Below, piece after piece: positions 1,958 to 9,637 of a stretch of 32,106 bases of DNA (its first letter is position 1; each line of letters starts with the position of its first letter). The translations under genes and the position numbers were made by a program. The stretch is from a virus (lineage: Duplodnaviria; Heunggongvirae; Uroviricota; Caudoviricetes). The notes beneath the pieces are model-generated. The model made no database searches, was not told the origin of the DNA, and saw only the letters and a list, made by a program, of their open reading frames with translations. The stretch lies in the IMG/VR virus record IMGVR_UViG_2671180890_000008; one strand, written 5' to 3'.

Positions 1958-4405
1958 TTAACCGTCATGCATCATGCTGGCACGGGCGCGCGCACGTTTA
2001 TCCCGCTCGTATTTTTCAAGCGCATCCTGTAACTGGCGGTCAAGCTGTGTCCCCGGCGCAGTACCACCCGTCAGGCTGATGTGATATTCGTTTTTACTCT
2101 GGTCTACATAAGAGCGACCAGCCGGTGCCGTGACCGGCTGATAAGCCTGATAGCCTGCATAAGAGCTGGTCGCCGGAATATAACCACCGCTGCCATACGT
2201 GGCGGCTTGAGTTCTGGCGGCGGTCTGGTCAAGTGTGTCTGACTCTTTGTTGATAACACCGAGTTTTTCCAGTACCCAGTCAATACCACTGCGCAGTTTG
2301 TTGAACGCATTAAGCGGCAGCATCAGCGCGTCAGCCAGTGCCTGCCCGAACATGACCCCCGTGTCACGGCAACTGTTCAGGGTGTCCTGAGTGGCTTTGA
2401 CCGGGGCAATCAGGTTTTTAAACCACTGCCACGCGGCCTGTAACTTTTCACCCAGCCAGTCAAACACCGGCTTAAGTGGCGTGAACAGTTCCCCCACCGG
2501 CGCAAATGCCACTTTCAGCCCTTCAACCACACCGCCAAAGAATGCGCTGACAGGCTCCCAGTATTTACGGATAAGCAACGCCCCGGCGACAATTGCGGCC
2601 ACCACGGCCACAACCGGCCAGCTAATAGCCCCGATGGCGGTCATAACAGCACTGCCAACCGTCGTGAAGACTGCCCCCATTGCGCCTGCTGCCGCGATGA
2701 TGCCATTGATGCCGGTGATAACCGGCCAGGCTACAAGACCAATTGCACCGATGATGCCAGTCAGCGCCAGCGCGCCACCGGCAATGATGCCGATGGTTGA
2801 CGCCAGTGATTTGTTTTTCTGGATCCAGCCGTCGAGTTTTAACACATACTTTGTGGCCGTCTGCGTGAGCTTACGCAGCGCGCCTTCCTGCTGGTCAAAC
2901 AGGTCAGTCCCCACCGCCTCATAAGCGGACTGAAACTCCTTAAAGTCACCGCCGAGGTTGTCCTGCATGATATTTACCAGCTCGGCGGTCTTCCCGTCTG
3001 AGGCTTTAAACGCAGCGGTCAGTTTGTCCAGCTTTCCGGTTGAGGCGGCAGTCATCAGCACGGTGGCGGCTGAGCTGGCTTCCTCCCCGAAAATGGTTTT
3101 CATGTATTCAGCCTGCTGGGCAGTACCGAGCCGGTTTTTCTCAAAACTGGCCTGCATTTCTTTCAGAATGGTAAATACTGGTCGGGTGTTTCCCTTACTG
3201 TCTGAGGTTTTCACGCCAAGCTCTTTGAGTGCATCCCATGCTTTTCCCGTCGGTGCCTGCAGGCGACTTAACACGGCACGGCTTCCCGTCCCCGCCATTG
3301 AGCCTGTGATTTTTGCATCATGCAGCGCTCCGACCATTGCGGCGGTTTCTTCAATGCTGACACCGGCATTTTTTGCCACAGGTGCAGCATAGGTCAGCGC
3401 ATCGCTCATACCGTCAAAATCGGCGGCGGTTTTGTTCATCGTCATGGAGAGAACATCCCCGATATGAGCGACCTTATCGTTTGAAAGCTGAAAGGCGGAT
3501 TTCATCCCCATCAGCAGGGCAGCGTTTTCTTCCATCGTGCGACGGTTCGCCAGCGCCATATTCAGCGTGACCGGCGTTGCCGCCTGAATGGCATCAACAT
3601 CCCCACCGGCTTTCGCAATAATAATCTGCGCACCGGCTGCATCATCTGCCGAGGCGGCGGTATTGTCGCCGAGCTGGCGCGCCTGTTTGCGTAGTGCAGC
3701 CATTTCGGCGGAGTCTTTTGCCACTCCGAGCACGGCCTGCAATTCTGAGTTTTTCTGCGCAAACTCATAACCGGGCATCAGCAGCTTAACTCCGGCCATC
3801 GTTCCCGCCGCCGCAATCCCCACACCGGCAGCGCCCACCGAGGCCATATTTCCGGCCAGTTCCTTGCCTGCCTGATAACGCTGTTTGACTGCGTTAAGTT
3901 TTGCCTGTTGCGCACTGACACGCGCCAGCGCGTCGCGCTGACGGTTAAGCTGTGCGGTGGTTTCACTGATACGGTTTTTCAGTCCCTGCTCATCATGTGC
4001 AAGATTGCGGGTATTAATTCCCACAGCGGCCAGTTCCCGTTGCTGGCGTTTAACGGAATCCGTCAGGCGGTTATATTTCGCCTGTAAGTCCTCCGCCGCA
4101 CGCTTTGCGGATTCCAGCACTTTCGCCTGAGCACGGGTCGGACGTTCGGTGTTTTTAAACTGTGTGGCAAGGGCTTCGGCTTCCTGCCGTGCCTTTTCAA
4201 GTGCATGACCAGTCACGGCAAGCTGTGCGCTGGTCTTGCGAAATCCCTCAATACGGGATGCGTGACCGTTCAGCTCGCGCAGTGATTTTTGTGTTTCCCG
4301 GATATCCCCCGACAGCGACTTACTCGCTGTGCGGATGGATTTAAACGGGCGGGATGCCTGGTCAACAGCCCTGAGCAATACCTGTAATTTTACATTGTTA
4401 CTCAT
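1958..4405 (-). CDS. T: Tail tape measure protein T, 815 aa
   Basis: 815 aa, coiled-coil-rich N-terminus and Gly/Ala-rich hydrophobic middle typical of tape measure proteins; length equals P2 gpT. Confidence 0.9.
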   Translation of the reverse strand: MSNNVKLQVLLRAVDQASRPFKSIRTASKSLSGDIRETQKSLRELNGHASRIEGFRKTSAQLAVTGHALEKARQEAEALATQFKNTERPTRAQAKVLESAKRAAEDLQAKYNRLTDSVKRQQRELAAVGINTRNLAHDEQGLKNRISETTAQLNRQRDALARVSAQQAKLNAVKQRYQAGKELAGNMASVGAAGVGIAAAGTMAGVKLLMPGYEFAQKNSELQAVLGVAKDSAEMAALRKQARQLGDNTAASADDAAGAQIIIAKAGGDVDAIQAATPVTLNMALANRRTMEENAALLMGMKSAFQLSNDKVAHIGDVLSMTMNKTAADFDGMSDALTYAAPVAKNAGVSIEETAAMVGALHDAKITGSMAGTGSRAVLSRLQAPTGKAWDALKELGVKTSDSKGNTRPVFTILKEMQASFEKNRLGTAQQAEYMKTIFGEEASSAATVLMTAASTGKLDKLTAAFKASDGKTAELVNIMQDNLGGDFKEFQSAYEAVGTDLFDQQEGALRKLTQTATKYVLKLDGWIQKNKSLASTIGIIAGGALALTGIIGAIGLVAWPVITGINGIIAAAGAMGAVFTTVGSAVMTAIGAISWPVVAVVAAIVAGALLIRKYWEPVSAFFGGVVEGLKVAFAPVGELFTPLKPVFDWLGEKLQAAWQWFKNLIAPVKATQDTLNSCRDTGVMFGQALADALMLPLNAFNKLRSGIDWVLEKLGVINKESDTLDQTAARTQAATYGSGGYIPATSSYAGYQAYQPVTAPAGRSYVDQSKNEYHISLTGGTAPGTQLDRQLQDALEKYERDKRARARASMMHDG

Positions 4406-4825
4406 TCGTGTTTCCGCTTCGCCGGAGCGCCTTTTCGCGCCATGTGATGAGTTCGGTCAGGCTCATGGGATACAGTTCTGATGGCGGCCAGTGAAATATC
4501 ACTGCCACATCCGCCATCAGGTCATCGACCGACAGATTTTTCGGGAACGTCACTGCACCGAGTTCGGCGACAAAAAACCGACCACCTTACCGGCCAGCGC
4601 CACAAGGTCAGGCAGTTCCAGCGCGGCGACTTCCTGCTCGGTCAGCATCGGTGCCGTCATGCGCGGCAGCACCTTAATCAGTGCATCGACTTCGGAGTTC
4701 GCGACCGCTGCCAGACTGACACCGCGCAGCGTCCCGGCATTGGGTTTCATCAGCGTGACCTGTTCGATAACCTGCTCACCACGTTTGACCGGATTGTCCA
4801 GGGTAATGACATTTTCTTTGTTCAT
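4398..4825 (-). CDS. E+E': Tail assembly chaperone E+E' fusion made by programmed -1 ribosomal frameshift
   Basis: Minus-strand heptamer T TTT TTG (plus coordinates 4571-4577). After a -1 slip the frame stays open to a TAA at 4398-4400, overlapping the T start at 4405. Hand-translated extension: '...VAELGAVTFPKNLSVDDLMADVAVIFHWPPSELYPMSLTELITWREKALRRSGNTNE'. Confidence 0.7.
4550..4825 (-). CDS. E: Tail assembly chaperone E, 91 aa (zero-frame product)
   Basis: 91-aa ORF between FII and T, ending '...GKVVGFLSPNSVQ'; a TTTTTTG slippery heptamer lies near its 3' end. Confidence 0.85.
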   Translation of the reverse strand: MNKENVITLDNPVKRGEQVIEQVTLMKPNAGTLRGVSLAAVANSEVDALIKVLPRMTAPMLTEQEVAALELPDLVALAGKVVGFLSPNSVQ

Positions 4826-5412: not shown

Positions 5413-6603
5413 TTAATTGCTGTTAACCGAGGTGACCAGACTTGCCAGGTATCTTGAAGTAATACGCTGGCGCAGGGTCAGGTTTTCGAGGGGAGGCACC
5501 GGGGTATAGTCGTAGTCGATATACAGTTTTCCGGCCTTGAGGGTTTCCGCATCGTTGGATTCTTCACTGAACCAGCATGTGCCATCCACGATATAACCGT
5601 TGTTTTTCAGTTCGCGGAATTTGGCATTGATGCCGTCAATGATGTCGCGAATCAGCGTTGCGGTGATGGGCTTATCAATAGCCCACATGTGCGCCTCAAC
5701 CATCGTGTCGGCCAGTACCTGCGCAGTGCGTGTGTAGCTTTCAAAGAGGAACAGCGGGTCATCGGAGCAGGTACGGTTACCCCAGAAACGGAAACCGTCT
5801 CGGCGAACCAGCGTTGTGACGCCTGCCTCGTTCAGCAGGTCAGCATCAGTGCCAGACTTCTGCAAATCCCAGAATACAGATGCACTGATGCCGGTAACAC
5901 CGTTTACCCCGACGTTGGACAGCGTTTTATGCCAGCCCTGCTCCTGGTCGATTTTGGCACGCAGCCCCAGCGCACGGGCGGTGGCATACGCGGTGGCGGT
6001 GGTACTGGTGACCGTATCCCATGCGAGGAAATCCGGCCAGATAACCATCAGCTCACGCTGGCTGAAATTCTGGCGGTAGGCTTTCACCTCGGAAATGGTT
6101 TTACAGCCCCATGCGCTGATATACCCGAATGCATTCAGTTCCTGGCATACCGATGCCAGTGCGACGGCAACCTCTTTGGTGTCCAGCCCCGGCACACCGA
6201 GAATGCGCGGTTTAACGCCGGTAACCGACTCAGCCCCCATCAGGGCTTTCAGTCCGGTGTACTGACCGTTTTCGTCAGTGGTGCCGATGATATTGGAAAC
6301 GGTCTGCGCGAGTTTCGTTTCCTCGTCGTCGCCGGTGCCGTCTTCCACACGCACGACAACGGTGACCGGTTTTGACTGGTCGGCGATGGCCTGCAACGAT
6401 GCCGCCAGCGTGCCTTTTTTACCGGCCTTCGCAATTGCACTCTGCACATTGGTAATCAGCACCGGTTTATTGAGGGGGAAGGTTTCCGCATCCGCATCGC
6501 TGGCCGTGCAGACCATGCCGACAATGGCCGTGGATACGGTGGAAATGACGCGGGTGCCGTCGTTAATCTCCAGCACCTGCACGCCATGATGATAGTCACT
6601 CAT
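5413..6603 (-). CDS. FI: Contractile tail sheath protein FI, 396 aa
   Basis: 396 aa, first gene of the FI-FII-E-T-U-D operon; P2 gpFI length. Confidence 0.9.
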   Translation of the reverse strand: MSDYHHGVQVLEINDGTRVISTVSTAIVGMVCTASDADAETFPLNKPVLITNVQSAIAKAGKKGTLAASLQAIADQSKPVTVVVRVEDGTGDDEETKLAQTVSNIIGTTDENGQYTGLKALMGAESVTGVKPRILGVPGLDTKEVAVALASVCQELNAFGYISAWGCKTISEVKAYRQNFSQRELMVIWPDFLAWDTVTSTTATAYATARALGLRAKIDQEQGWHKTLSNVGVNGVTGISASVFWDLQKSGTDADLLNEAGVTTLVRRDGFRFWGNRTCSDDPLFLFESYTRTAQVLADTMVEAHMWAIDKPITATLIRDIIDGINAKFRELKNNGYIVDGTCWFSEESNDAETLKAGKLYIDYDYTPVPPLENLTLRQRITSRYLASLVTSVNSN

Positions 6604-6708
6604 CCGTTTAACTCCGTGGTTAATGGGTGCAACTATTTTCTGTTGTGCAGAGCATGAGACGCTATTTGCCCTGGATGGTCAGTGGATGAAACAACAGATA
6701 CAGAAAAG

Positions 6709-6725
6709 GCGGGCAATTCGCCCGC
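6709..6725. terminator. GC-rich hairpin (GCGGGC-aattc-GCCCGC) between the FI start and the cargo gene; possible terminator or insulator
   Basis: 6-bp GC stem with a 5-nt loop; the minus strand continues with CTTTTCT. Strand of action is ambiguous. Confidence 0.3.
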
Positions 6726-6919
6726 ATTTCCTAATTTGTACTAACCCAGCTTCCAACTGACAATTTACGTAGCCAAAAAGCTTTCAAGTCTGGCAGACTG
6801 ATTTGTACGAGGTGTGGATAACCATAATTATGTGCATGCTAACATCACGGTGCATGAGTCAATCGGGTCTATGCCAACGAATTACGCCTTGATTGACCAT
6901 AGATTGCTTGCCCTTGAAT

Positions 6920-6948
6920 TTGACCATTCCAATAAAATGAATTATGAT
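6920..6948 (+). promoter_or_regulatory. Candidate sigma70 promoter of the HTH cargo gene (-35 TTGACC, 17-nt spacer, -10 TATGAT)
   Basis: TTGACC at 6920-6925 and TATGAT at 6943-6948; GGAGG at 6960-6964 lies 6 nt before the ATG at 6971. The -35 is part of a TTGACCAT direct repeat (6893-6900 and 6920-6927). Confidence 0.35.
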
Positions 6949-6970
6949 AATCGTCAAATGGAGGTGCACA

Positions 6971-7615
6971 ATGATCAAACACACCGCAGCAGAAAGGGAA
7001 ACCAACACTTCAGCTAAGCTGAATGAATACCAGTTGAACCTTCTGAAAAGAATTAACAACCTCGCTATTTCCCTGATGCCTGAATTTGAAGACAAAAACC
7101 AGGCAATTAATGCTATCACGCTGGATGATAGTTCACTGATGCAATTGCTCTACACCGTTCAACTCGAACAGAAGACTCGTGTCAATGACTACGAACTACG
7201 TAAAGTGCGCCGTCGTCGCGAAAATCTGGAACGATTTTATCGTGGGCTTCAGGAGTTAGGCGGTACGCTAAAGGTAAATGACGTGGTCGATATTCTTGGA
7301 ATCACCCGCCAGGCGATCAACATTCGCGTTAAGAAGAACAAGCTTTTAGCATTCAAGCAGAACGGTGATTTTATTTTCCCGAAATTTCAGTTCACAGATA
7401 ACGGGCTGATTCCCGGCTTTGAAGACGTAATGGCGGCATTTGACGAGAATACCCATCCAATGCTGAGGTTGGGTGTGCTGAAATCACCAATAGAGGTTAA
7501 TAGCGAAGGCCTGAAAAAGACGCCGATTCAAATCATGCAGGACGGCGCTAAAAATAGTGAACTTAGTCTGGCTATCCGTGCCGCTAAACAGTTCGGAAAT
7601 CATGTATCCAGTTAA
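6971..7615 (+). CDS. Cargo gene: 214-aa HTH protein with an Xre/MbcA/ParS-like (DUF2384-type) antitoxin C-terminus and a ~100-aa charged N-terminal extension
   Basis: Start chosen at the second Met (MIKHTAAERE...) because of the GGAGG site. Putative HTH 'VVDILGITRQAINIRVKKNKL'. C-terminus '...TPIQIMQDGAKNSELSLAIRAAKQFG' fits the P-x2-hydrophobic...G...hydrophobic-rich...G pattern of RES-antitoxin toxin-binding domains as I recall them. Lower GC than the phage core. Confidence 0.5.
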   Translation: MIKHTAAERETNTSAKLNEYQLNLLKRINNLAISLMPEFEDKNQAINAITLDDSSLMQLLYTVQLEQKTRVNDYELRKVRRRRENLERFYRGLQELGGTLKVNDVVDILGITRQAINIRVKKNKLLAFKQNGDFIFPKFQFTDNGLIPGFEDVMAAFDENTHPMLRLGVLKSPIEVNSEGLKKTPIQIMQDGAKNSELSLAIRAAKQFGNHVSS

Positions 7616-7624
7616 TTGTTTTAA

Positions 7625-7650
7625 AAAGAGGGGCTAGCCAGCCCCTCTTT
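7625..7650. terminator. Bidirectional rho-independent terminator between the convergent cargo genes
   Basis: Perfect 11-bp stem AAAGAGGGGCT / AGCCCCTCTTT with a 4-nt loop (AGCC), sitting between the two stop codons (7613-7615 and 7654-7656). Confidence 0.7.
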
Positions 7651-7653
7651 GGT

Positions 7654-8364
7654 TTACATTGGTTCTGGCGTAATTTCGAATCCAAGCAGTTCTTCGAACA
7701 TCTCTTCACCTGACATCGTTCCTTTGTGCCACCCTTTAGGGAAGATACCTTCGTCATTTTCGATGTAACTGGCATAAGGCACCATCCCCTGAGGGGTATC
7801 GGTAAAGGCTGGTGTACTATCCGGTCGTTCCCAAAAGGCATAACAGCGTTTATAGCGTTTATGCCTTGAGGTATAGGCTATCCCGTCATAGTCACGCCCG
7901 AAATGTGTATAAAGATGTTCCATTAGCCATTGAGTAAAAGTGTAATCCTCGTTCTCTAAGCTATCCAAAGGAATATGTAACAACTCACAGAGCGCTACAA
8001 CATCGATCACTTTCACTGGCCTCATGACATCCACAGAGCACATATAGTGTTGTGAAAGTACCGATTCAGGATAAGAAATCGTCCCTTCGAGATGGAGCAA
8101 ACGCCCATAAGCTTCTGCCGCCGCCGTTAACGCAGAGTCAGAGGCATACCATACCGCCACACATCCCCCTGGGGGGTTGTATCGCCCACATTTATTTTCC
8201 TCAATTGGCGCTCTGAAGTTGATTGCGCTTTCATACAACGCCATTTGATGACGCTTCAAAAGACCAGAGCCTGGTTGAATGTCAATCGCCGGAATACGTC
8301 CAGATTTATTTTTTGCAGCAATTCCTTGTGCAACAATATTTTTTTCAAATGTCCATTTGGTCAT
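7654..8364 (-). CDS. Cargo gene: RES-domain protein (predicted NAD+-targeting toxin of the RES family), 236 aa
   Basis: Start set at Met17 (MTKWTFEK...), preceded by AGGAG with an 8-nt spacer. 'CGRYNPPGGCVAVWYASDSALTAAAEAYG' matches the RES-domain Arg/Glu core (G-R-x-N...Y-x-A...E), and 'GIAYTSRHKRY' supplies the conserved Ser region. Confidence 0.7.
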   Translation of the reverse strand: MTKWTFEKNIVAQGIAAKNKSGRIPAIDIQPGSGLLKRHQMALYESAINFRAPIEENKCGRYNPPGGCVAVWYASDSALTAAAEAYGRLLHLEGTISYPESVLSQHYMCSVDVMRPVKVIDVVALCELLHIPLDSLENEDYTFTQWLMEHLYTHFGRDYDGIAYTSRHKRYKRCYAFWERPDSTPAFTDTPQGMVPYASYIENDEGIFPKGWHKGTMSGEEMFEELLGFEITPEPM

Positions 8365-8481
8365 TTTTACTACTCCTTCTATAAACAGATTAAGCCATAG
8401 GCTCCTCTCCATATTGATTGAAAATAATCCCTACCGTGCTTGCCCGGCAGGGGGTATGAGAACATGTGTATCTCAATCTCG

Positions 8482-8490
8482 ATTATACCA
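8482..8490 (-). promoter_or_regulatory. Candidate extended -10 promoter (TGgTATAAT) for the RES gene
   Basis: Minus strand reads 'tttgctTGGTATAATcgag' about 120 nt upstream of the RES start; no convincing -35. The predicted leader contains a mini-ORF (GGAGAGGAGCCT ATG GCT TAA). Confidence 0.3.
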
Positions 8491-8779
8491 AGCAAATTTT
8501 CTATTTTTCGGAAATTTAGAGAGTTTTTTTAATGCTTCGCATGCCTTCTCGATGTATTGATGGGGCTGAAAAGAAGAAATAACGCAGGAAGTTTTACGGA
8601 AAGGAGAACTATAAAGATTTTTATCAAGTGAATTAGAAATAAGAACTTCGCAGGATACTGCATTTTTAGTGAAGATGGGTTGAGTTTCTCAGCAAGAGTC
8701 CCGCGAGAGCCGTATTGACAGCATGCATGACTCGGAGATTATTCCCCATGCAGGATGGTACACCAATGCAAGAGTTGGT

Positions 8780-8968
8780 TTACGCAAATGATTGGATGAT
8801 CGCGATTACCGACCGTACATTGCGCAAATAACGTTCTGCGTCGATGCTATTAAGATGCCCCGACCACACCGTACGACGGACGCCGTAGTGATCCGAGCTT
8901 AAGAATAGATAATCTTTTCTCTCCTGATTCACCGTTCGCAGTGCGTTTTCCATAGCTGTCGCAAGCAC
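8780..8968 (-). CDS. Short hypothetical ORF (62 aa in the track) downstream of G; possibly a gene remnant
   Basis: Open frame only; no convincing ribosome-binding site; sits next to an inverted repeat (8984-9023). Confidence 0.2.
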   Translation of the reverse strand: MLATAMENALRTVNQERKDYLFLSSDHYGVRRTVWSGHLNSIDAERYLRNVRSVIAIIQSFA

Positions 8969-9058
8969 AATACTTCCGCTACAGGCACAGAGCGGACTGT
9001 CAGATTAGGTTTTACTCTGTGCCATAGATGAGTAATCTCATACCAGAGCTAATACGAT

Positions 9059-9637
9059 TTATTGCGGCATTTCTGGCCATTCTATATCCGGAGCATCTTC
9101 CGGCTGAACGCGATTCAGTAGCACACGGTATTTTTTCCAGTGTGTCAGGCTTAACTTTTCTTCCTCGGTAGCCATATCTAAATCGACAGCATCCTGCAGC
9201 GTGGCAATAATTTCACCTGCATATGCAATCAGCTCTTTCTTCTGAGAGTCAGCCGCTCTGACAAGCGCATCACGCTCTGCATTCTCATCATTCACCCACG
9301 CATTTCCGTTCCATTTCTGATAATCCCCATCCGGGGAAATGGCTGTCACGTCTGGAGGTAATACGCCAAGTTCAGAAATATAAATGGCTACTCCCGTTTT
9401 CGTTTCATAGACGGTCTTTCCGCGATGGTCTTCCATCAGTTCCCATTTCATTTCATCTGCATTGAAAACGGCTGCATAACCAGCAGGAATATCAGGTGGT
9501 GCAATATCTGTACTGTTTGCAGGCAGACCTGTATGCGGCGGAATATATGCATCACTTTCGCCAATAAACTCATTGGTTCCATCAAGTAAATTGAAAACGC
9601 GGATAGTTTGTGCTTCTGCACTCATTCTGAAAGCCAT
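9059..9637 (-). CDS. G: Tail fiber assembly chaperone (lambda Tfa-like), 192 aa
   Basis: N-terminus '[54 protein letters not shown]' and C-terminus '[11 protein letters not shown]...[10 protein letters not shown]' closely resemble lambda Tfa and P2 gpG as remembered; start overlaps the H stop. Confidence 0.85.

Follow-up and report, generated by a model that had tools for sequence, protein, structure and literature searches.

What is the role of a predicted DNA-binding protein encoded next to a RES-domain enzyme, and does it act on its own promoter? The question is raised by a stretch of DNA of 32,106 nucleotides (the window; IMG/VR record IMGVR_UViG_2671180890_000008), which is DNA of a P2-like (Peduovirus) prophage of E. 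coli. Between the counterparts of the P2 genes FI and G it carries two convergent genes, one for a helix-turn-helix (HTH) protein (6971-7615, +, 214 amino acids) and one for a RES-domain protein (7654-8364, -, 236 amino acids), named in NCBI annotation 'hypothetical protein' (or 'DNA-binding protein') and 'RES family NAD+ phosphorylase', respectively. A first-pass annotation of this DNA had taken the HTH protein for an antitoxin of RES with an extended N-terminus, and had seen a sign of autoregulation in a motif repeated at its promoter. On balance we favour, with some reserve, the view that the HTH gene encodes an antitoxin-like regulator of a non-canonical RES toxin module. The genes are convergent and have promoters of their own, and thus they do not form a toxin-antitoxin operon.

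The pairing of the two genes was followed across genomes and mobile elements. Among 20 species-level genomes encoding a relative of the HTH protein, the convergent RES gene is intact in ten, split, stopped or fragmentary in three, and absent from six; in the remaining one the contig ends early. Decay of the RES gene is represented by an in-frame stop codon in Erwinia sp. CGal63 (locus L019, 4608-5315), a split gene in Erwinia sp. AnSW2-5 (L005) and a fragment in Chimaeribacter (L016). The HTH gene is kept, with RES disrupted or absent, in these three loci and in L004, L007, L014, L015 and L017; in L015, from Leclercia, an insertion sequence adjoins it. Plasmid records number 235 for the HTH protein (159 of them conjugative) and 141 for RES. 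By genus, HTH and RES records stand at 95 and 92 in Klebsiella, 18 and 18 in Raoultella, 7 and 7 in Escherichia, and 8 and 0 in Leclercia, the last in line with the orphan HTH genes of Leclercia chromosomes. Over a few dozen loci, orphan HTH genes are common and a RES gene without the HTH gene was never seen. Thus RES never stands alone and the HTH gene often outlasts its decay, which is the pattern expected of an antitoxin.

The same pairing is observed in remote relatives. E. coli A28 (L002) has the convergent RES gene, and all four distant long relatives examined (P0128, P0133, P0139, and P0156; 22-28% identity) have a convergent gene of 208-235 amino acids, the partner being matched by the Pfam RES model in three of the four (that of L025 has no match). 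When RES homologues served as the starting point, a convergent HTH gene of 213 amino acids was found in two cases of two. In all 16 paired loci (the window and 15 others) the genes converge, the stop codons being separated by 10-41 nucleotides and a hairpin resembling a terminator, and the RES partners range from 208 to 239 residues. The contexts of the cassette include conjugative plasmids, integrative elements, the small plasmid pAsa2, and the P2-like prophage; two annotated plasmids (L031, L032) carry the same convergent pair. In a distant branch, represented by P0166, the HTH protein has a core of 34% identity (hhalign probability 99.8%) and an unrelated N-terminus, and an overlapping co-directional RES gene follows it in the canonical antitoxin-then-toxin order. 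An adjacent RES gene was found for none of the four short relatives (141-152 amino acids) examined. Near one HTH relative of 142 amino acids (L038, 3132-4012), a 119-residue protein with a weak DUF2384 match is encoded by a gene overlapping that of a 174-residue RES protein. This canonical-looking Xre-like/RES pair is separate from the short HTH relative and lies about 1.5 kb downstream of it; thus both kinds of RES partner can co-occur.

On pAsa2, a 5.2-kb plasmid of Aeromonas salmonicida (L043, NZ_CP085539.1), the convergent pair occupies positions 3414-4788 and encodes an HTH protein of 210 and a RES protein of 235 amino acids, 32% and 35% identical to the respective window proteins. The other annotated genes of this plasmid are mobilisation genes and two small hypothetical open reading frames (171 and 306 nucleotides). 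The pair being the only further annotated genes, we infer that it corresponds to orf2 and orf3, which were lost together in derivatives coexisting with pAsa2 (PMC5736529).

These observations could also be ascribed to a sensor-effector defence pair, in which RES would be inactive by default, the N-terminal domain of the HTH protein would sense a phage cue and activate or release RES, and the inverted repeat at the HTH promoter described below would only set the level of the sensor. Such a role would be in agreement with the variable FI-G site of the P2-like prophage in which the cassette resides, with the defence-type genes that it adjoins elsewhere (GmrSD_N, ScoMcrA/HNH), with an N-terminal domain that is specific to the convergent RES-linked relatives examined and is replaced by an unrelated one in the RES-linked branch of P0166, and with the ability of RES proteins to act as anti-phage NAD+ depleters, as in the case of aRES (bioRxiv 10.64898/2026.01.28.702374). 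However, an activator model predicts losses of both kinds, whereas HTH-only loci are common and RES-only loci were never found. Moreover, P0166 belongs to a canonical antitoxin-then-toxin operon, and the frequency of the cassette on conjugative and small plasmids suits an addiction module. We consider the sensor-effector explanation rather unlikely.

The second line of evidence for an antitoxin-like regulator comes from the promoter of the HTH gene. The observation of the first-pass annotation that TTGACCAT occurs twice on the plus strand, starting exactly at 6893 and at 6920, 27 bp apart, was confirmed, as was the coincidence of the second copy with the -35 of the sole promoter-like site upstream of the HTH gene, a sigma-70 promoter (6920-6948; TTGACC, 17 bp, TATGAT) with 10 matching positions of 12. 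When the upstream regions of 21-23 loci were aligned in register, intergenic conservation proved to be limited to the two arms of an inverted repeat, the -10, and the Shine-Dalgarno sequence, and ahead of the -35 the profile is flat. Three blocks stand out, namely TTTGACcATTcC (-35 with flanks), TAnnAT followed by AAT (-10 with its flank), and cGTCAAATGGAGGTG (right arm with the Shine-Dalgarno sequence). In the window the arms ATTTGACCATT and AATCGTCAAAT are complementary at 10 of 11 positions with 20 bp between them. The consensus of this putative operator is ATTTGACnATT-N20-AATnGTCAAAT, its arms covering the -35 and the predicted transcription start, which was placed near 6955 from the position of the -10.

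Several features of this inverted repeat are shared by the related loci. The TTGAC...GTCAA span equals 38 bp in 20 of 23 of them; the arms are perfect complements in L006, L011, L012 (14 bp), L019, and L020; and ...GAC(G/T)AGT replaces ...GACnATT in both arms in Erwinia and Kalamiella, i.e., the change occurred on both sides. Synonymous sites are saturated between clades and the spacer sequences have diverged, despite the kinship of the loci. Analogous repeats occur at the same place at 28-33% protein identity, namely in L029 (GTTAACGATTGTT-N17-AACAATCGTTAAC, with perfect 13-bp arms), L027 (TTGACAATTTA and TAAATCGTCAA), L025, and pAsa2 (TTGACGTTTTA and TAAACGTAAA). Within the 32-kb window the exact motif TTTGACNATT occurs only at the two arm sites, and 1.8% of random 14-mers tried as a control achieved 10 of 14 matches to a partner site. 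With 31 bp, or about three helical turns, between their centres, the arms would lie on the same DNA face. Arms over the -35 and the predicted start are, as far as the sequence can tell, the layout of an autorepressed promoter. The earlier suggestion of autoregulation is upheld in that a conserved promoter repeat points to it. Its basis has to be revised: the repeat under selection is inverted, the copy at 6893 is not conserved, and the motif noted at the promoter is one arm of a palindrome rather than a direct repeat.

If the two direct copies of TTGACCAT were the operator, the HTH protein would bind them head to tail, in the manner of BldC and excisionases of the same HTH class. The upstream copy has degenerated or disappeared in L002, L003, L006, L007, and L009 and is absent from L010 onward, i.e., missing from all remoter loci, and it lies in the region of flat conservation. 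In the closest clade it reads TTGACCAT in L004, where the two copies differ, TTGACGAT in L005, TTGAACAT in L008, GTGATCAT in L003 and L006, TCGGCCAT in L007, and CTGGCTAC in L002, and a 7-bp indel alters its distance to the -35 among close relatives. The direct repeat is also statistically unremarkable. The window contains 33 exact direct 8-mer repeats spaced 8-40 bp apart versus 18 ± 5 in shuffles; the probability that this 120-bp region holds one or more such repeats is about 0.035; and TTGACCAT itself is present in three copies in the window versus 1.2 expected, a number reached by 10 of 100 shuffles. We regard a direct-repeat operator as improbable, and the upstream copy, judging from these alignments, is probably non-functional, at most a clade-specific auxiliary site. 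A third copy of the motif with one mismatch (TTTGATCATT, 6970-6979) was considered as an operator and rejected: it overlaps the start codon, is lost in L011 and L013, and exists because of the conserved Met-Ile-Lys codons.

The assumption that the N-terminal region of the HTH protein is translated, rather than lying ahead of a start further downstream, is borne out by several observations. Both the Shine-Dalgarno sequence and the ATG at 6971 are conserved across the 21 loci. An alternative start at ATG 6944, giving an open reading frame of 223 codons, was rejected, as it falls inside the -10, has no Shine-Dalgarno sequence, and is followed by stop codons that close the frame in remoter loci. 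A search of 5.8 billion proteins identified 127 relatives, nearly all of 209-214 amino acids and covered over the full length. In an alignment of 19 sequences the N-terminal positions Q21, L25, R27, I28, F39, A48, D52, D53, L56, L60, R81, L86, F89, Y90, and L93 are invariant, and R27, D53, and F89 remain nearly so in 46 sequences down to 21% identity. In a codon comparison with eight orthologues the ratio of nonsynonymous to synonymous substitution rates (dN/dS) is 0.07-0.12 for residues 15-95, 0.00-0.03 for the winged helix, and 0.08-0.13 for the C-terminal domain, with residues 2-14 alone free to vary. Thus the whole HTH protein is translated and under purifying selection. The dN/dS of the N-terminal domain does not differ between loci that lost and loci that keep RES, and so this comparison is uninformative as to which domain contacts RES. 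In the phage collection searched, no close homologue of the HTH protein was observed.

A profile search of 1.84 billion cluster representatives yielded 1,547 relatives of the HTH protein in two size classes, one of about 200-245 amino acids aligning from residue ~12-50 and the other of 127-155 amino acids aligning from residue ~72. The short relatives retain a basic helix (e.g., 'KLEKRKAATISFYKRIDDLGG' in P0146), and therefore residues 73-95, the Arg/Lys/Glu-rich stretch seen in the first pass and a helix common to all relatives including those of 141-152 amino acids, are part of the conserved core. Only residues ~1-70 are an added, clade-specific helical domain. The extension of about 100 residues claimed earlier is thus real, since some 95 residues precede the HTH at roughly amino acids 99-137, but it is a domain of 70 residues followed by the core helix. 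Its richness in charge is modest, with 31% Asp, Glu, Lys, and Arg in residues 1-98 and 23% in the rest of the protein.

AlphaFold used with the 19-sequence alignment gave a good model for the C-terminal two thirds and a poor one for the N-terminus (predicted local confidence, pLDDT, 56-67). With 46 diverse full-length members the mean pLDDT was 89.8, at 84-93 over residues 11-60 and 82-83 over 61-80. In the latter model helices span residues 6-15, 19-34, 36-39, 42-49, 53-69, and 73-95, the winged helix 99-137, and the C-terminal helices 150-156, 163-171, 185-190, and 195-210. The N-terminal helices are short and interrupted, and so the coiled-coil look ascribed to this region does not correspond to a long coiled coil; we found no convincing structural relative of the N-terminal domain. 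In fold the protein belongs to the Rv2175c/Xis/MerR class of winged helices, which also includes AlpA. The family profile matches Rv2175c with an E value of 3.2e-5, and the Pfam models HTH_17 and Rv2175c_wHTH match 38 and 27 of the 46 relatives, respectively. Xre-like-HTH matches three and HTH_3 four of the 46, all weakly, and the 'Xre-MbcA-ParS middle domain' matches 15, with the best E value of 5e-4. Both features of the Rv2175c-like type, the winged helix-turn-helix and a helical C-terminal domain after it, were found. The HTH protein is thus an Rv2175c-type winged-helix protein, not an antitoxin of the Xre/DUF2384 type. As for the antitoxin-like nature attributed to it earlier, the conserved partnership with the neighbouring RES gene stands, and the canonical type and gene order do not. 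That it is a transcription or excisionase-like factor of a mobile element, merely adjacent to RES and functionally unrelated, is very improbable: its sole library match is a weak one to a PHROG excisionase HTH family (residues 99-130, E 1.6e-4), its fold class is common to Xis, AlpA, and MerR proteins, and short relatives lack an adjacent RES gene, but the pair stays a unit with its 10-41-nucleotide gap from E. coli to Aeromonas and metagenomic relatives (~25-33% identity), occurs in prophage, plasmid, and integrative-element contexts sharing no other genes, and has no integrase linked to it.

The convergent partner matches the Pfam RES model (PF08808) with an E value of 2.2e-12 and 47.7 bits versus the cut-off of 23.2, and no model other than RES. 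It has the conserved Arg, Glu, and Ser of a RES toxin: R61 and E84 are invariant in 13 paired RES sequences down to 28% identity, and Ser166 (in the YTSRH motif) is found in the window and most paired RES proteins, with Gly in L013 and L027. The GC-rich hairpin between the two stop codons is likely a bidirectional terminator. Upstream of RES we found an extended -10 (TGGTATAAT, 8482-8490, minus strand) and a leader of about 115 nucleotides with two hairpins, which outperforms shuffled sequences in folding (z -2.7). With a U-run behind it, the second hairpin (8429-8452) resembles an intrinsic terminator, and a hairpin with a U-run is kept with a different sequence in L011-L013; the leader could be an attenuator holding toxin synthesis low, or a short upstream RNA. 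The element AGCCTATGGCTTAATCTG (8385-8405, minus strand), about 40 nucleotides ahead of the RES start, is shared between clades. In the distant loci L023, L025, and L027 the matching GCTTATG is the right arm of a CATAAGC-N14-16-GCTTATG inverted repeat, and in L012 this position reads TATAAT; the element may serve as a weak promoter or be bound by another regulator. Within 170 nucleotides upstream of RES in 16 loci there is no TTGACnAT or ATnGTCAA, and essentially no TTGAC or GTCAA. Repression of RES by the HTH protein through the same operator, tried as a candidate, was thus rejected.

For the antitoxin-like regulator that we favour, the following mechanism may be proposed. Two winged helices related by two-fold symmetry would bind the two arms and shut off the HTH promoter. 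The long spacing would call for an extended dimer, with the N-terminal domain as the obvious candidate for building it; alternatively, a RES dimer could join two HTH proteins, making the toxin a co-repressor by analogy with Xre-RES complexes. Such complexes repress their own promoter via imperfect inverted repeats, and in P. putida Xre-RES and NatRT it is the toxin-containing complexes that repress (PMC12204516). The HTH protein would contact RES directly and hold the enzyme inactive, while RES would be produced separately, from its own promoter and through the structured leader. Loss or titration of the HTH protein, by cassette loss, host transcription shut-off, or a phage factor, would allow RES to consume NAD+ and stop growth, and as a result either the carrier element would be stabilised or infection by another phage aborted.

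Several points weigh against this reading. Convergent gene order is unusual for type II toxin-antitoxin pairs. No model of Pfam, NCBIfam, or PADLOC matches the HTH protein of the window, and the toxin-binding domain DUF2384 (PF09722) gave no HMM match in any of the 46 relatives. Owing to the common descent of the loci, the conservation of the operator does not amount to 23 independent observations; the left arm would be conserved in part merely as the -35. A half-site spacing of 31 bp is unusual for a simple dimer. Upstream of RES there is no operator copy that could match the toxin level to the antitoxin level. Finally, orf2 and orf3 of pAsa2 are still called hypothetical (PMC5736529).

At the level of the element, the antitoxin-like module appears to serve either addiction or abortive infection against phages, if not both. 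Addiction is suggested by the plasmid contexts and pAsa2. The P2 cargo site, with the GmrSD- and McrA-like neighbours elsewhere, points to abortive infection, for which aRES provides a precedent (bioRxiv 10.64898/2026.01.28.702374). As a tentative possibility, held with clearly less confidence than the regulator assignment itself, the convergent HTH-RES cassette could be an unrecognised two-gene abortive-infection system, distinct from both aRES and RES-Xre, in which the clade-specific N-terminal domain would sense the trigger or effect the release. A phage factor or host transcription shut-off would remove the autoregulated inhibitor, RES would deplete NAD+, and the cassette would be carried for defence as well as maintenance.

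Table 1. Features of the HTH-RES cassette and its surroundings (positions in the window).
Feature	Position	Strand	Remarks
Tail sheath gene, P2 FI counterpart	5413-6603	-	NCBI annotation of matching E. coli loci
Mobile two-gene cassette, approximate ends	6822-8495		Inward-facing genes with own promoters; 1.7 kb; low-GC cargo between FI and G
Upstream TTGACCAT, first repeat of the first-pass annotation	6893-6900	+	Exact match; DNA without conservation across 21 loci
Operator inverted repeat, left arm ATTTGACCATT	6918-6928	+	Holds -35 TTGACC (6920-6925) and the second TTGACCAT (6920-6927)
-10 hexamer TATGAT	6943-6948	+	17 bp past the -35; TAnnAT at the same place in all relatives
Operator inverted repeat, right arm AATCGTCAAAT	6949-6959	+	Overlaps the predicted transcription start near 6955
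Shine-Dalgarno GGAGG	6960-6964	+	6 nucleotides ahead of ATG 6971; kept as GGAGGTG in 21 loci
HTH-protein gene, 214 amino acids	6971-7615	+	Open reading frame; identical start in NCBI annotation of identical E. coli loci
Domains of the HTH protein			Residues 1-70, clade-specific helical N-terminal domain; 73-95, basic core helix; 96-140, Rv2175c/HTH_17-type winged helix; 141-214, helical C-terminal domain
GC-rich hairpin between stop codons	7625-7650		Better T-run on the RES side
RES-domain protein gene, 236 amino acids, predicted NAD+-consuming toxin	7654-8364	-	Pfam RES; convergent with the HTH gene
RES upstream region	8365-8490	-	Extended -10, leader, hairpins, AGCCTATGGCTTAATCTG, Shine-Dalgarno AAGGAG; without TTGACnAT operator
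Tail fibre assembly gene, P2 G counterpart	9059-9637	-	NCBI annotation of matching E. coli loci

The cassette (Table 1) is rare at its site. The interval 6604-9058 was matched by megablast at 100% coverage and 99.7-100% identity in only 9 of 5,426 complete E. coli genomes. Similarity to unrelated contexts (L002, L007, L008) begins at CCATAATTATGTGC, positions 6822-6823, and stops near 8495, and the GC content is 42-45% within the cassette versus 51-58% in the neighbouring phage structural genes. The FI-G interval, which we take to be the Z/fun cargo position of P2, varies in gene content among otherwise syntenic P2-like phages: Yersinia phage L-413C has one gene of 259 codons with function unknown, P2_4A7b three small genes, and other E. 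coli P2-like prophages hypothetical genes and an IS3 transposase. In addition, we observed that the block CCATAATTATGTGCATGCTAACATCACGG (6822-6850) marks the left border of the mobile cassette; no repeat or recombinase accounting for mobility was found. Immediately outside the left end, an 11-nucleotide direct repeat (CTAATTTGTAC at 6731-6741 and CTGATTTGTAC at 6798-6808, 67 bp apart) might be an insertion scar or due to chance. An open reading frame of 62 codons (8780-8968, minus strand) is similar to the C-terminal portion of IS3-type transposases (PHROG E 1e-6) and looks like an insertion-sequence remnant beside the cassette. No Rfam family was found in 6600-9060 at E values up to 1.

The cassette has spread on clinically relevant conjugative plasmids of Klebsiella, Raoultella, and Escherichia, and it is probably behind the two genes still unassigned on pAsa2, a 'cryptic' plasmid with a long history of study. 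If orf2 and orf3 are the pair, pAsa2 would have a module for its maintenance, as is already the case for pAsa1 and pAsa3. The cassette is small (1.7 kb) and self-contained, and therefore toxicity, neutralisation, autoregulation, and phage protection are each open to simple constructs.

Comparison with known systems places the cassette beside several of them. Our literature search found canonical operons and aRES and no paper characterising a convergent HTH-RES pair, and PADLOC models gave no match for the cassette proteins. The type II RES-Xre systems (MbcT-MbcA, ParT-ParS, Xre-RES of P. putida, NatT-NatR, KnaT-KnaA) share with it the RES-domain toxin. In contrast to their Xre/Cro HTH (PF20432 or HTH_3), the partner here is of the HTH_17/Rv2175c winged type and about 100 residues longer, lacks a match to the DUF2384 that those antitoxins carry, and is encoded by a convergent gene with a separate promoter rather than in one operon; the RES protein, at 236 amino acids, has extra N- and C-terminal segments. 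Judged by its genes, the module would work like a RES toxin-antitoxin pair, yet it lacks three RES-Xre features, the Xre HTH, a detectable DUF2384, and the operon. The DNA-binding core belongs to the same family as Rv2175c of M. tuberculosis (PDB 2kfs), which binds DNA through a winged helix, is a substrate of the PknL kinase, and has 146 residues, 13% identity to the HTH protein, and no helical N-terminal domain. A search of titles and abstracts revealed no connection of Rv2175c with a RES toxin, and none is known to have been described. The position, low GC, and variable content are those of the P2 FI-G (Z/fun) cargo, lying at the same site, flanked by the tail sheath and tail fibre assembly genes. 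P2 fun(Z) is a single gene that blocks T5 and is unrelated to RES, whereas the cassette here comprises two genes, HTH and RES. With pAsa2 it shares the convergent pair and an analogous inverted repeat at the HTH promoter, although there the carrier is a 5.2-kb mobilisable ColE1-type plasmid and not a prophage. Finally, it resembles aRES in having a RES-domain enzyme in defence or mobile contexts, with NAD+ depletion proposed to arrest growth of the infected cell. However, aRES is a standalone protein of 300-600 amino acids with a second domain, PF18870, and without a partner gene (Osterman et al., bioRxiv 10.64898/2026.01.28.702374), whereas the protein of 236 amino acids described here matches the RES model only and has an obligatory HTH partner. 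If our interpretation is true, the cassette would represent a third arrangement of NAD+-destroying RES enzymes, beside the classical toxin-antitoxin operons and the recent standalone anti-phage protein, distinguished by a DNA-binding partner from another class, by toxin and inhibitor genes that converge and are transcribed separately, and by an operator with unusually distant arms.

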